A stretch of 64,000 nucleotides of DNA from Desulfobacteraceae bacterium (GTDB lineage: Bacteria; Desulfobacterota; Desulfobacteria; Desulfobacterales; JAABSP01), in NCBI GenBank assembly GCA_011390135.1, contig JAABSZ010000002.1, positions 3,039-67,038 on the forward strand. Direction: 5' to 3'. Made by a program: the position numbers and the translations under genes. The notes below the pieces were generated by a model. That model was given only the letters and a program-made list of their open reading frames with translations, was not told where the DNA came from and ran no database searches. Positions 34,524-40,806 of the stretch are shown one piece after another (position 1 is the stretch's first letter; the number at the start of each line of letters is the position of its first letter).

Positions 34524-34997
34524 ATGAAGCTTGTGGTTTATGTGGGGGATATGAAGGTTGGCGAGAAGGAGGATACTCTGGTAACCCATGCCCTGGGCAG
34601 TTGTCTGGGGCTGATGGTCTATGATCCGGTTATCCGGGTCGGGGGGCTGCTCCATGCGATGCTGCCCCTCTCCAACATCAACCCGGAGAAGGCCCGGGAC
34701 AACCCCTTCATGTTCGTGGACAAGGGCGTTCCCCTTCTCTTCAAGTCCCTTTACAATATGGGTGCCCAGAAATCGAGGATGATTGTAAAAGCTGTGGGGT
34801 GCGGCCGACCTCTGGGCAACGATCAGATGTTTAAAATCGGAGAACGGAATCATACGGTTTTAAAAAAACTCTTATGGAAAAACAACGTGCTGCTGGATGC
34901 CGAGGAAGTCGGCGGAACAGCGAGCCGAACAGTTCATTTCGACCTTTCAACAGGGCAGACGATCATTTCCAGCGGCGGCGTGAAAAGGAAGATCTGA
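34524..34997 (+). CDS. cheD: Chemoreceptor glutamine deamidase CheD with an intact catalytic triad (CheD1)
   Basis: 157 aa. Thr21, Cys27 and His44 lie in VTHALGSCLGLMVYDPVIRVGGLLHAMLP, the same numbering as the Thermotoga CheD triad as I recall it. Confidence 0.85.
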   Translation: MKLVVYVGDMKVGEKEDTLVTHALGSCLGLMVYDPVIRVGGLLHAMLPLSNINPEKARDNPFMFVDKGVPLLFKSLYNMGAQKSRMIVKAVGCGRPLGNDQMFKIGERNHTVLKKLLWKNNVLLDAEEVGGTASRTVHFDLSTGQTIISSGGVKRKI

Positions 34998-35009
34998 CAA
35001 GGAGATGCA

Positions 35010-36482
35010 ATGCATCAGGAGACGGTAGGAAAAAAGATGGGAAAGATCTCGCTGATCATGGTGATCATAGCAATTGCCGTGTCCGCACTCTCCAATCTCG
35101 TCGATTACAATCGGGAAAAGCGGCAGCTCCGGGCCAATTTTCAGGGGACAGTCAAGCCCATTACCGAGCGTCTGGCCAACGGACTGGAGAAACCCCTCTG
35201 GTTTCTGGATGAAAATCAGATCCACAAGCTCATCGAGCAGGAGATGATCGAAAAGACCCTTTTCGGAGTGGTGGTCCGGGAATCGGACGGGAAAACCATC
35301 TTTGCCACCATGCAGCGGGGCAAAAACTGGGAGGATCTGCAACGATCCAAAAAAGAGATCTCCGGTGATTACGTCGCCATGAAAACGCCCGTCCAATACG
35401 GAGACAAGACCATCGGTTCGGTGGAGACCTTCTTCACCGAACGGTTTATGAAAGAGAAGCTCAAGGATCTGCTGATCTTTATGGCCGTCAAAGTGGTGCT
35501 TATGAGCCTTCTGCTGGTTGCCCTCTTTCTGCTGATTGTCCACTGGTTTATCGTCCGTCCTATTGGGGCCGTCTCCCGGGGGCTCGAAGCTGTAGGAGAG
35601 GATGTGAGCGATGCGGTGGGCCGGGTTTCCGTCACCAGCCGGCAGTTGACCGATGGGGCCTCTCAGCAGGCCGCAGCGGTGGAGGAGACCTCCTCCTCGC
35701 TCGAGCAGATGTCCTCGATGATCCGGCAGAATGCCGAAAACCTCCGCCATGCAAACGATTTGATGACAGAGACCGCAAAGGTGGTAGAGGATGCAGCCGC
35801 GTCGATGGTTGAGCTGACCCGCTCTATGGAGAGCATCTCCAATACCGGTGAGGAGAGCAGGAAGGTCATCAAGACGATCGAGGAGATCGCATTTCAGACA
35901 AACCTGCTGGCCCTGAACGCAGCAGTGGAGGCGGCCCGGGCCGGGGAGGTGGGAGCCGGTTTCGCGGTGGTGGCCGATGAGGTGCGGAACCTGGCCATGC
36001 GGTCGAGCCAGGCCGCAAAGAATACCACCGGACTCATCGAGACCTCCATCGAGGGGATCGAAAGCGGGAGAAAGATTGTCTTCAAGGCCAACAGGGCCTT
36101 CGAAAGTGTCCGGGAGGGGTCGGCAAAGGTGGCCTCACTTTTGAATGAGATCACCGCGGCCTCCGCGGAGCAGACCCAGGGGATCAACCAGGTGAGTCAG
36201 GCCATGACCCAGATCGATCAGGTCACCCAGGACAACATGGCCTGCACCGAGGAGGTGGCCGGGGCTCTTGAGGAGATCATCGGGCAGTTGGGAAACATGA
36301 AGTCCCATGTCTCCATGCTGATGGGGCTCATTCGCGGCCGCAATACCGGGGCCGGCTCCGATACTCTCGCGACAGATGATGAATGGAACCGGGAATCGCT
36401 TCTCTCTGGCGATGACCCTGCCGGGAAGGGGTGGGAGAAGCGGTCGAACCGGGCCCTGACGGGAACCGCATCGGGAGATTGA
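35010..36482 (+). CDS. Methyl-accepting chemotaxis protein (two TM helices, small periplasmic domain)
   Basis: 490 aa. [41 protein letters not shown]. Confidence 0.9.
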
Positions 36483-36483
36483 A

Positions 36484-37329
36484 ATGAAGAAGAATGATCG
36501 TTGGGAAGAGATCAAAGCCGAGGCCGAGCGGTTCTGCAGCAGCAGATTGAAGTCCCATGGACTCCCGCTCGACCCTGAAACCATCGATGCCGGTGCAGTG
36601 GAGAGGATGGCCGATCCGGAGCTTGAGCGGGCAATTTTAGAGCTTTCCAACTGGAGCTATTTCAACAGGGAGAATGTTATCGACTCGTTGGCCGAAGCTG
36701 AAAAGCGACAGGGACCCCGTCCTTTTTTTGAGATCTGCCTGGGCGCATCCCTGCGGAAGCTGATGAACCGGCCCGTGCCGGGCTATCATCTGGAAGCCGG
36801 GGAACTCTGGTCTCATGGCATCGGTGTGGCGGTGGCCGCGGAGGAGATCGGGAGAATCGCGGGCCGGAAGGAGAATGAGATCGGATTTATGGCCGGGCTT
36901 CTCCACGACGTGGGGAAGCTGGTGCTGGGGGATTATGTCGAGAGGTATCTGGAAAAGATCCGGAGCATGACCCAAAACGGCCTCTCTTTTGAGATCGCGG
37001 AGCAGCGGGTGCTGGGGGGGGACCATACGCAACTGGGAGAGCATATGCTGCGCTGCTGGGGATTTTCCGGGGAGATTCTCCGGGCCGTCCGCTGGAGCCA
37101 TGATCCGGATGGGGCCGAGCCGGTAAGCCAGGCCGCGGATATTCTCCATGTGGCCAATGTCCTCTGCCTGAGCATCGGCATCGGCGTGGGACAGGAGGGA
37201 TTGCATTACAAAAGCTCCCCTGCGGCCCTGAACCGGCTGAAGGTGACCACAAGACACCTTGAACTGGTGGCAAGCCATACGCTACAATGGATCAAGGATC
37301 TGCCCGAACTCGTGAGGGCTTCACCGTAA
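36484..37329 (+). CDS. HDOD-domain protein
   Basis: 281 aa. GLLHDVGKLVLG and ...DHTQLGEHMLRCWGF... patterns typical of HDOD. Starts 1 nt after the MCP stop. Confidence 0.75.
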   Translation: MKKNDRWEEIKAEAERFCSSRLKSHGLPLDPETIDAGAVERMADPELERAILELSNWSYFNRENVIDSLAEAEKRQGPRPFFEICLGASLRKLMNRPVPGYHLEAGELWSHGIGVAVAAEEIGRIAGRKENEIGFMAGLLHDVGKLVLGDYVERYLEKIRSMTQNGLSFEIAEQRVLGGDHTQLGEHMLRCWGFSGEILRAVRWSHDPDGAEPVSQAADILHVANVLCLSIGIGVGQEGLHYKSSPAALNRLKVTTRHLELVASHTLQWIKDLPELVRASP

Positions 37330-38760: not shown

Positions 38761-38807
38761 TTTTTACCGATATCTTACAAATATGAAGGGTGATAAGAGG
38801 TTATTCG

Positions 38808-39182
38808 ATGGCAATCAATGTCCTTATTGTAGATGACAGTGCGGTAATGCGGGCGATGATCCTCAAGTCGATGCGCATGAGCGGTCTGGAGATCGGCGAG
38901 GTGCTTCAGGCCGGCAACGGCCAGGAAGGGCTTGATACCCTCGGCGAGAACTGGGTGGATCTGGTGGTGGTCGATATCAACATGCCGGTGATGACCGGCG
39001 AGGAGATGATCGACCGCATGCGCTCGGACCCGGGATTCTCCGATCTACCCATTGTGGTCATCTCCACCGAGGGAAGCGAATCCCGGCTGAAACGTCTGCA
39101 AGAAAAGGGCGCGGCATTCATACACAAACCCTTTACGCCCGAGGCGATCAGGGATACCATCAAGACGCTCATGAACCTGTAA
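38808..39182 (+). CDS. cheY: CheY-like single-domain response regulator (CheY2, paralog of CheY1)
   Basis: [21 protein letters not shown]...DLVVVDINMPVMTG...ISTEGSE...KPF. The upstream ATG at 38790 is less likely. Confidence 0.85.
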   Translation: MAINVLIVDDSAVMRAMILKSMRMSGLEIGEVLQAGNGQEGLDTLGENWVDLVVVDINMPVMTGEEMIDRMRSDPGFSDLPIVVISTEGSESRLKRLQEKGAAFIHKPFTPEAIRDTIKTLMNL

Positions 39183-39235
39183 CGGGGCCGAAGCGATCCG
39201 ATGAAAGAGACCATGAAAGAGATTAAAGGATTGTC

Positions 39236-40300
39236 ATGATCAAAGTCCTTATTGTGGATGATTCGGCGATTGTCCGCCAGATCCTGAGTAATGAACTCTC
39301 CAAATACAAAGATATCGATATTGTGGGAACCGCGGTTGACCCCTATGTCGCGCGGGACAAGATCGTCAAGCTGCAGCCCGACGTCATCACCCTGGATCTG
39401 GAGATGCCGAGAATGGATGGCCTCTCCTTTCTGGCCAAGCTGATGCGGTACCATCCCATGCCGGTGGTCGTTTTGAGTTCCCTGACGCCCAAAAACAGCG
39501 AAAACGCTCTCAAAGCCCTCGATCTCGGGGCAATGGAAGTCCTCTGCAAGCCCGGCTCCGCCTACTCCACAAAGGATGTCTCCAGAAGCCTGGTTCAGGC
39601 CATCCGGGCAGCGGCCGAGGCCAAAGTCGGTCTGGCCCGCCAGAGCCCGCTCAAGGCGTCCGATACCGGGATCAAAGATACGCCGATGCCGATCCGCACC
39701 ACCAACAAGATCATCGCGATAGGCGCCTCCACCGGCGGAACCAAAGCCATTGAATCTGTGCTGGTCAACATGCCTCCGGCAACCCCGGGACTGGCCATTG
39801 TTCAGCATATGCCCGAAAAATTTACAACTGCATTTGCCAAGCGCCTCAACGAGATCTGCCAGATCGAGGTGCGTGAGGCGGCAGACGGAGAACATCTGAT
39901 TCCGGGGCTTGCGCTGATCGCGCCCGGAAACCGGCACATGCTTCTGGTGAGAAGCGGGGCCAGCTATCTGGTCCGGATCAAAGGAGGCCCCCCGGTTCAC
40001 TACCAGCGGCCCAGTGTCAATGTCCTATTCCAGTCGGTGGCAAAACATGCGGGCCGCAACAGCATCGGGGTGCTGCTGACCGGGATGGGCGCAGACGGAG
40101 CCCAGGGCCTTCTGGCGATGCGGCAGGCCGGGGCCTATACCATCGCGCAGGACGAGAAGACTAGCGTGGTTTACGGCATGCCCCGGGAGGCCGCAAAGAT
40201 GGGGGCCGCGGCAAAGATCTCTCCTCTCCAGGATATCTCCAGGGATATCTTCAACGGGCTGCGGGAGGGGAAGAATGGCCAGGGAGAGGGCGCGTCGTGA
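39236..40300 (+). CDS. cheB: Protein-glutamate methylesterase/glutaminase CheB (REC plus methylesterase)
   Basis: 354 aa. [12 protein letters not shown]...[12 protein letters not shown]. Esterase domain [26 protein letters not shown]. Confidence 0.9.
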
Positions 40301-40806
40301 AAGAGGATACCTACCCGACGCCCGTGGATTACTTTCTGGAGCCCGGATATATCTTTGTGGCTGCAAAGCCGGCCATGATCTCCGGTGTGCTCGGCTCCGG
40401 AGTCTCGGTCTGCATCTATGACCGGAAGCGGAAGACCGGGGGGATGAACCACTTCAAATACCCCTTTATCGGCGAAAAGCGAATGTCGACCGCGATCTAC
40501 GGCAACGTCTCCACACTGGCGCTGATCCGGATGATGATCAAAGACGGCTCTAAAAGAAAGCATCTGGAGGCCCAGATTTTCGGCGGCGCGCACAATCTTT
40601 CGCTTTCCAAAAAGAATATAGGAAGAGAGAATATCATGATGGCCAAACGGATTCTTGCCCGGGAGCGGATCGATCTGGTCTCCGAGGATGTGGGGGGTGA
40701 GAAGGGGCGGAAGGTGGTCTTCAACACCAGCAAGAACGAAGTCGCGGTGATGAAGGTGGAGAGGCTCCGGGCCGGAGACTGGTATCCCTACGAAGAGAGC
40801 CGCTAG
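40297..40806 (+). CDS. Divergent CheD-like protein with the catalytic Cys position occupied by Gly (CheD3)
   Basis: 169 aa. [29 protein letters not shown] aligns by eye to TLGLGSCVAVC..GAMAHVMLP. Gly35 (GGA, 40399..40401) sits at the Cys position, Ser29 at the Thr position, and His52 is kept. ATGA-type overlap with cheB. Confidence 0.7.

Follow-up and report, generated by a model that had tools for sequence, protein, structure and literature searches.

A conserved 12-gene chemosensory operon of Desulfobacteraceae/Desulfococcaceae, located in a 64,000-nucleotide stretch of contig JAABSZ010000002.1 from a Desulfobacteraceae bacterium (GenBank assembly GCA_011390135.1; the whole stretch is called the window below), encodes three homologues of the chemotaxis protein CheD. 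Judged from its sequence, CheD1 can be classed as a canonical CheD. CheD2 and CheD3, which carry serine and glycine at the position of the nucleophilic cysteine, are CheD homologues best described as CheD-like and not as cysteine deamidases, because the defining catalytic-triad test failed for both. They are two different phenomena: the serine of CheD2 is strictly fixed, whereas in CheD3 the position drifts within a separate lineage.

CheD is widespread, and whether its main job is that of an enzyme or of a regulator is disputed; genetic work in Bacillus subtilis speaks for binding to receptors and CheC as more important than deamidation. On balance we favour a division of labour, read from alignments, in which CheD1 would be the working deamidase, CheD2 a conserved binding protein that turns over little or no substrate, and CheD3 a non-catalytic accessory linked to CheB. 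No description of natural CheD variants lacking the cysteine was found in the literature searched. What is new here is a conserved clade of Ser27 CheD paralogs and a large CheB-linked CheD lineage that is often devoid of the nucleophile; the system itself is not of a new kind. With a putative Cys enzyme, a Ser-fixed paralog and a drifting CheB-linked paralog, the operon amounts to a natural experiment that extends across ~12 species-level Desulfobacterales genomes, and it offers separable natural proteins for testing whether CheD is mainly an enzyme or a regulator.

Active sites of the three CheD homologues

All three proteins scored above the gathering score of the CheD family (Pfam PF03975, gathering score 25), with 87.0 bits for CheD1, 85.4 bits for CheD2 and 78.8 bits for CheD3. 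The original prediction, made from the letters alone, of three CheD paralogs in one operon was thus borne out, the open reading frames (ORFs) being present where it had placed them. No further CheD homolog was found among the window ORFs of at least 90 amino acids (aa). The best solved relative of each protein was, by far, Thermotoga maritima CheD (PDB 2F9Z chain C). CheD1 and CheD2 are 60% identical in amino acids and 65% in nucleotides (nt), and CheD3 shares 22–26% identity with either of them.

The catalytic triad of T. maritima CheD consists of Cys27, His44 and Thr21 (PMC7022378), as the prediction had stated. To assign the corresponding residues, HMMER pairwise alignments to 2f9z_C were combined with residue mapping. 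CheD1 has the complete triad T21/C27/H44, with the same residue numbers as in T. maritima and a TGT codon for the nucleophile. CheD2 has T21/S27/H44, and the AGT codon of Ser27 was read directly at 38386-38388. CheD3 has S29/G35/H52, with a GGA codon for Gly35 at 40399-40401. The Cys triad test failed for the latter two. The original prediction had each of these assignments right: the exact triad of CheD1, the Ser27 and AGT codon of its close paralog CheD2, and, in the divergent CheD3, Gly in place of Cys, Ser in place of Thr and a retained His. Ser29 of CheD3 would be a tolerated alternative at the Thr position, since NTAN1 uses Ser there as well (PMC7022378).

A misalignment that hides another residue at the nucleophile position was considered and rejected. 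HMMER, MAFFT and Foldseek all pair the GT-S-LGL and GS-G-VSV segments with GS-C-VAV, so that Ser27 and Gly35 align with Cys27, and the alignment check proposed along with the prediction brought up no other candidate residue.

The AlphaFold model of CheD2 (predicted local distance difference test, pLDDT, 95) superposed on 2f9z_C in Foldseek with a template modelling (TM) score of 0.87 and a root-mean-square deviation (rmsd) of 1.9 Å; for CheD3, the pLDDT was 94.7, the TM scores were 0.81/0.89 and the rmsd was 1.5 Å. Both models match the CheD fold, a CNF1/YfiH-like alpha/beta/beta sandwich as in 2F9Z chain C. The fold of CheD1 was assigned through its 60% identity to CheD2 and its sequence match to 2f9z_C (E-value 2.6e-19). 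All three CheDs are encoded among chemosensory genes (CheA, CheR, CheB and a methyl-accepting chemotaxis protein, MCP), and the operon as a whole is syntenic in those relatives whose contigs are long enough.

Hence the three proteins share Pfam family and fold with the CheD of T. maritima and Bacillus subtilis (2F9Z), a receptor glutamine deamidase/methylesterase that binds CheC and activates receptors. The triad of the T. maritima protein is identical in CheD1, whereas Ser stands in CheD2 and Gly in CheD3. None of the three reached the cut-off of an NCBIfam CheD equivalog (NF041119 CheD_Thtga, NF010013 PRK13487 and others), all remaining far below it: the best scores were 104.9 for CheD1 and 105.9 for CheD2 against 240, and 120.7 for CheD3 against 223 (PRK13487).

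CheD1 and CheD2 also differ from T. maritima CheD in a second motif. At residues 92–96 (34797-34811 in CheD1; 38581-38595 in CheD2), the near-universal CheD 'GGA' is replaced by G-C93-[GS]-R-P. Cys93 is conserved in 100% of the CheD1 and CheD2 orthogroups, but neither T. maritima CheD nor CheD3 nor any of 19 more distant homologues has it.

A fixed serine in CheD2 and a drifting nucleophile in CheD3

A homologue search with CheD2 covered 5.8 billion proteins, and the closest matches split into two clean groups. The CheD2-type group (44 clusters, 141–151 aa, 70–100% identical to CheD2) carries GTSLGL, hence Ser27, in 44/44 clusters. The CheD1-type group (76 clusters, ~157 aa, 63–70% identical to CheD2) carries Cys27 in 76/76, within a GSCLGL motif whose single exception is an L28Q change (P0105). 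CheD2 orthologues occur in ~12 species-representative genomes or metagenome-assembled genomes (MAGs) of Desulfobacteraceae/Desulfococcaceae, including Desulfatirhabdium butyrativorans, and in more metagenome contigs. Wherever the contig reaches that far, a CheD1 with a Cys (TGY) codon lies 2–4 kb upstream. Ser27 is encoded by AGT or AGC in all CheD2 loci examined; the codon thus changes synonymously while the serine is kept.

Only six differences between the CheD1 and CheD2 groups are fixed (H22Y, S26T, C27S, N53D, M63I and S134N). Three of these lie in the nucleophile loop, where THALGSC became TYALGTS. Neither group varies at T21, at H44 or in the other conserved motifs of the cleft (100% conservation). 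Whichever relative was compared, nonsynonymous divergence (dN) was lower for CheD2 than for the other two paralogs (0.066–0.119, compared with 0.115–0.173 for CheD1). The ratio to synonymous divergence (dN/dS) was 0.04–0.12 for CheD2 and 0.05–0.14 for CheD1, with dS saturated against all relatives but the closest. These comparisons show that CheD2 derived from a CheD1-type gene, that Cys27 became Ser by a single TGY-to-AGY change with remodelling of its neighbours (H22Y and S26T), and that purifying selection acts more strongly on CheD2 than on either of its paralogs, the rest of the CheD2 cleft being as conserved as that of CheD1. CheD2 is a functional protein with an altered active-site loop.

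The window comes from a metagenome-assembled genome, and AGT and GGA are one or two substitutions away from TGY; the Ser and Gly codons might therefore be sequencing or assembly errors, or CheD2 and CheD3 might be pseudogenes decaying after duplication. We regard this explanation as refuted. Ser27 is invariant in the 44 clusters and at every locus examined, with two synonymous codons, a protein identical to CheD2 is present in an independent Logan assembly, and the GGA codon of Gly35 also occurs in a separate MAG (L005). The doubt raised with the original prediction, that the AGT codon was a sequencing error, is dispelled by the same observations. Pseudogenes were rejected for both proteins on account of intact full-length ORFs, dN/dS values of 0.04–0.24 and confident models (pLDDT 95 and 94.7).

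The picture is a different one for CheD3. In the nucleophile column, the 120 closest CheD3 clusters (59–100% identity) have Cys in 66 cases, Ser in 47, Gly in 4 and Ala in 3, and 105 further Desulfobacterales clusters have Cys in 44, Ser in 36, Gly in 24 and Ala in 1. Among the 141 nearest CheD3-like representatives at 50% identity, drawn from a library of 1.84 billion proteins, the counts are Cys 79, Gly 38, Ser 14, Ala 9 and Asn 1. On a neighbour-joining (NJ) tree of the 120 clusters, the position underwent at least 21 state changes from a root inferred to be Cys. The same clusters have Ser at −6 in 120/120, Cys at +4 in 114/120 and His in 103/120; the other 17 have Leu, Asn, Arg or Gln instead of the His, and some of these keep the canonical Cys. 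The GGA codon is common to the CheD3 of the window and of its closest MAG, L005; in relatives at a slightly greater distance, the codon is TGC for Cys or TCC for Ser. Between the window and L005, both Gly-bearing, the dN/dS is 0.24; the CheD3 gene is under purifying selection. At all loci seen, CheB is directly followed by a CheD3-type gene, the one exception being L018, which has this gene ~4 kb downstream. CheD3 is thereby shown to belong to a separate CheD lineage whose nucleophile position is constrained only to be small (Cys, Ser, Gly or Ala), a pattern which suggests that the canonical thiol is dispensable for the role of this lineage.

The original prediction had treated the two variants alike, as non-catalytic regulators or as Ser-nucleophile enzymes. 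Either role survives as a proposal, but the common treatment does not, as CheD2 and CheD3 differ in kind.

CheD3-type proteins could still be enzymes that use another residue, such as the +4 Cys (C39), or a water molecule activated by the His, which would leave the canonical position free to vary. The frequencies of the +4 Cys, −6 Ser and His next to a variable canonical position are in line with this explanation, as is the purifying selection on the gene. Nevertheless, we find it improbable. T. maritima CheD also has a +4 Cys (C31), and its nucleophile is Cys27; position +4 is occupied by Thr, Ser, Ala or Val in Cys-less clades that are more distant; and the His losses include proteins that retain the canonical Cys. 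Moreover, the +4 residue of the CheD3 model is situated in the beta-strand downstream of the nucleophile, from which it would be unlikely to reach the same site.

Among the distant CheD3-like clusters (P0241–P0390), the residue at the nucleophile position covaries with that at +4, Cys being found with Cys and Gly mostly with Thr. This suggests that old, stable Cys-less clades exist that are distinct from the recent Cys-to-Gly change of the window.

A comparable protein is found in a cultured species, Desulfonema ishimotonii (BEXT01000001.1, 10001-10516; locus L038). Its CheB-linked CheD has Gly at the nucleophile position and Leu in place of the His, and its operon combines this Cys-less protein with a Cys-type CheD1 and with two CheA genes upstream. 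The protein is annotated as 'probable chemoreceptor glutamine deamidase CheD'. The names that annotation pipelines give to Cys-less members of the CheD3 lineage, either this one or 'chemotaxis protein CheD', go beyond what the sequences support; examples are D. ishimotonii (Gly and Leu), Desulfospira joergensenii (Ser) and MAGs of Desulfobacula, Desulfamplus and Desulfotignum.

The closest known type for CheD3 is the proteobacterial CheR/CheB-linked CheD (PRK13487; Pseudomonas aeruginosa Che2 / F7), which is its best NCBIfam model and with which it shares an N-terminal extension and a position beside CheB. However, CheD3 stays below the equivalog cut-off (121 vs 223 bits), has Gly at the nucleophile position and belongs to a lineage that is variable there.

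Proposed division of labour and its alternatives

In the reading we favour, the three copies would divide the two known jobs of CheD, enzyme and regulator. CheD1 would act as a receptor Gln deamidase, possibly also as a methylesterase, and mature the Gln-bearing modification sites of MCPs. Scanning for the MCP modification-site consensus [ASTG]xx[EQ][EQ]xx[ASTG] identified Gln in the MCP of the operon (QQ 219-220, EQ 232-233 and EQ 387-388), as well as several QQ, EQ and QE pairs at consensus sites of an sCache MCP encoded next to the operon. These sites of the two MCPs are candidate CheD substrates.

CheD2 would dock on the receptor modification helix, or on a pseudo-substrate partner such as the CheX-family protein encoded upstream of it, with little or no turnover. 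It would bind and release in response to phosphorylated CheY (CheY-P) without chemistry, in the manner of the B. subtilis CheC/CheD/CheY-P loop or of Borrelia CheD-CheX. Binding of CheD2 to the receptor helix, with titration by a CheY-P-dependent partner, would fit both the neighbours of its gene (CheY, CheX, CheY and CheB) and the Borrelia precedent. In B. subtilis, the binding, non-enzymatic role of CheD is documented as the major one (PMC3513319), and the activity of Borrelia burgdorferi CheX is raised when it forms a complex with CheD (PMC5318424). B. burgdorferi likewise encodes CheD with a CheX-type phosphatase rather than CheC and is a plausible model for CheD2 and CheX. It differs in that CheX is also found here in operons without CheD2 and in that the adjacency kept is CheD2-CheY and not CheX-CheD2.

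Little or no turnover is favoured for CheD2 because Cys-to-Ser mutants of this fold serve as substrate traps. The dissociation constant (KD) of NTAN1 C75S for its substrate peptide is 27 nM (PMC7022378), the structure of BLF1 C94S was determined together with bound eIF4A (PMC8960835), and PDB entry 1hzg of CNF1 C866S is titled 'inactive C866S mutant'. All three carry the substitution of CheD2 at the same structural position, with fold and substrate binding kept. Unlike these laboratory mutants, CheD2 is natural, fixed and selected, and has the flanking changes H22Y and S26T.

CheD3, which with Gly35 has no canonical nucleophile, would most likely be a non-catalytic accessory of the methylation system that binds receptors or CheB. 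We propose this role because of its linkage to CheB, the interaction of Halobacterium salinarum CheD with CheB (PMC3579733) and the effect of P. aeruginosa CheD, which augments receptor methylation (cited in PMC10107281). If CheD2 and CheD3 indeed act without chemistry, they would provide direct evolutionary evidence that the regulatory role of CheD can stand alone.

The neighbouring CheX-family protein (Pfam PF13690, 54.8 bits against a cut-off of 27) has a single active-site motif, DALKELIN (D-x3-E-x2-N), that is conserved in 15 orthologues, and is predicted to be a phosphatase; we take D/S-x3-E-x2-N to be the active-site motif of CheC/CheX/FliY phosphatases. Directly before this motif, residues 78–85 (TQDQQQDA, 37970-37993) fit the MCP modification-site consensus with Gln-Gln. 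The segment is kept as T-x-[ED]-[QE]-Q-x-D-A in most of the 15 orthologues, one of which comes from an operon without CheD2. In T. maritima CheC, a receptor-mimic helix acts as a pseudo-substrate of CheD; by analogy, TQDQQQDA could be a pseudo-substrate for a CheD.

Several observations weigh against the division of labour proposed above. Ser27, Thr21 and His44 are all invariant in CheD2, as would be the case in an active Ser-His site, and a pure binder might tolerate Ala or Gly at position 27, as the CheD3 lineage does. The fixed N53D change could supply the acid of a Ser-His-Asp arrangement. About half of the CheD3 lineage keeps the Cys, so that the lineage may be catalytic in many species, and the near-invariant +4 Cys (C39) of CheD3 may be a functional thiol. 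CheX with its Gln-rich motif also occurs in operons that lack CheD2 and is therefore not specifically tied to it; co-occurrence gives no support for CheX as a CheD2-specific partner. Finally, the residues of CheD that contact CheC are Met-Phe (B. subtilis M101/F102; PMC3513319), and the corresponding 'SMF' of T. maritima aligns to P-L-G in CheD1, P-E-G in CheD2 and H-N-L in CheD3. With Leu-Gly in CheD1 and Glu-Gly in CheD2 aligned to the Met-Phe, a CheC-like docking mode is not evident for these two, and the alignments give no support for docking through Met-Phe in any of the three CheDs. Besides the CheX-type protein, no CheC-family gene was found in the operon. Compared with the CheC/CheD pair of T. 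maritima and B. subtilis, the operon thus has a single-site CheX instead of CheC, and its CheDs have other residues aligned to the Met-Phe.

The observations on CheD2 could be explained by an active hydrolase with Ser27 as the nucleophile, His44 as the base and perhaps Asp53 as the third member, maybe serving the easier hydrolysis of glutamyl methyl esters or other sites. Besides the invariance of Ser27, Thr21 and His44 over the 44 clusters and all loci examined, this explanation would account for the lowest dN and for the concentration of three of the six fixed changes in the nucleophile loop, with N53D as another. The fixation of Ser27 looks like selection for the hydroxyl, given that the CheD3 lineage, which can apparently do without catalysis, has let this position drift between Cys, Ser, Gly and Ala. 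T. maritima CheD is active not only on amides but also on methyl esters (cited in PMC12654446). CheB uses a nucleophilic Ser for the same chemistry. On the other hand, the engineered Cys-to-Ser variants of this fold (NTAN1 C75S, BLF1 C94S and CNF1 C866S) are used as inactive traps, and no Ser-nucleophile member of the CNF1/YfiH-like fold was found in the literature searched, nor do we know of one. We consider such an enzyme possible, if on the unlikely side. The narrower proposal of a Ser27-His44(-Asp53) enzyme retuned to receptor glutamyl methyl esters or to the TQDQQQDA segment of CheX seems to us rather unlikely; were CheD2 a Ser enzyme, the operon would hold two chemically different CheD enzymes and a dead one.

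Operon arrangement, duplication history and neighbouring genes

The twelve genes of the operon occupy 29742-40806 on the + strand and overlap or are closely spaced, as judged from the ORF list and Pfam (Table 1).

Table 1 Genes of the chemosensory operon and of the second chemosensory (che) cluster in the window.
Gene product	Coordinates	Strand	Evidence and remarks
Zn-ribbon, cyclic nucleotide monophosphate (cNMP)-binding and DUF4388/PatA_N protein	29742..31124	+	Pfam; first gene of the operon, also heads it in relatives
CheA histidine kinase (Hpt, dimerisation, HATPase and CheW-like domains)	31291..33702	+	Pfam
CheR methyltransferase	33683..34498	+	Pfam CheR_N and CheR
CheD1	34524..34997	+	157 aa; Pfam 87.0 bits; 2f9z_C E-value 2.6e-19
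MCP within the operon	35010..36482	+	Pfam MCPsignal on orthologues; motif scan
HDOD-domain protein	36484..37329	+	Pfam HDOD 113 bits
CheY1, extra, faster-evolving response regulator	37368..37742	+	Pfam Response_reg; NJ tree
CheX-family CheY-P phosphatase (predicted)	37739..38233	+	Start overlaps CheY1 stop; Pfam PF13690
CheD2	38308..38760	+	150 aa; Pfam 85.4 bits; 2f9z_C E-value 2.1e-18
CheY2	38790..39182	+	Start GTG 38790 or ATG 38808; Pfam; NJ tree
CheB methylesterase (REC and CheB_methylest)	39236..40300	+	Pfam 210 bits
CheD3	40297..40806	+	169 aa; GTG start overlaps CheB stop; Pfam 78.8 bits; 2f9z_C E-value 7.1e-16
sCache_2 MCP, second che cluster	40885-42564	-	Pfam
CheW, second che cluster	42573-43085	-	Pfam
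CheY3, second che cluster	43161-43526	-	Pfam

Four arrangements were recovered among the window and its relatives, synteny being judged where contigs were long enough. Type A, found in the window and in at least 10 relatives, has the order cNMP/PatA_N protein, CheA, CheR, CheD1, MCP, HDOD, CheY1, CheX, CheD2, CheY2, CheB, CheD3. Type B (Desulfatirhabdium, HSG8 and one more) has CheA, CheR, CheD1, MCP, CheD2, CheY, CheX, CheB. Type C (L018) has CheD1, HDOD, CheY, CheX, CheB and, further on, CheD3, and type D (D. ishimotonii) has CheD1, MCP, CheY, CheX, CheB, CheD3. As for the neighbours of CheD2, types A and B share only the CheY that comes directly after it, and CheX lies immediately upstream of CheD2 in type A only. 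Accordingly, the neighbours named in the original prediction stand for the window, with CheX upstream of CheD2 and CheB upstream of CheD3, but the CheX-CheD2 adjacency is absent from type B.

On NJ trees of CheD and CheY, which carry no support values, the CheD2 copies of types A and B form one monophyletic group. The additional CheY1 is limited to type A, and CheY2 clusters with its orthologue, the only CheY present in types B, C and D. CheY1 and CheY2 are 67% identical in amino acids. The original prediction had seen in the CheY1/CheY2 and CheD1/CheD2 pairs the products of one segmental duplication. We rejected a single collinear CheY and CheD duplication because the DNA repeat offsets differ (3784 nt for CheD1/CheD2 and 1446 nt for CheY1/CheY2), type B has two CheDs and one CheY, and CheY1 is confined to type A in the NJ trees. 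The CheD and CheY duplications are both old, since dS has reached saturation in the comparisons with every relative but the closest.

For CheR, the mechanical ORF runs from 33548, and the likely start is the ATG at 33683; the translation from 33683 begins MNLMLTELTEKQ, and the CheR of relatives is called at 270 aa. Long acidic linkers of low complexity, EPEPEPETEPEAEPETDRETDRETE and SETASSETPSSETPSQETREPETD, are present in CheA, and the antisense ORFs listed over this gene are almost certainly artefacts of the acidic linker composition. A promoter and terminator scan returned sites no more numerous than in shuffled sequences and was uninformative on the transcription unit. Both the PatA_N/cNMP protein at the head of the operon and the HDOD protein are syntenic in relatives, which suggests a cyclic-nucleotide input into the chemosensory pathway.

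No stand-alone CheW is encoded in the main operon. CheW is supplied by a second, convergent chemosensory cluster at 40885-46633 of the minus strand. In addition to the genes listed in Table 1, this cluster encodes a response regulator with REC and HD_5 domains (REC-HD_5, HD-GYP-type) and a coiled-coil protein that only just passes as MCP-like (35.9 bits, cut-off 34.6). Further along the minus strand, at 47403-48953 and 50517-51833, lie genes for a CobB/CobQ-type amidotransferase and a NIR_SIR (sulfite/nitrite reductase-like) protein, which belong to ordinary metabolism and fit a Desulfobacterales host.

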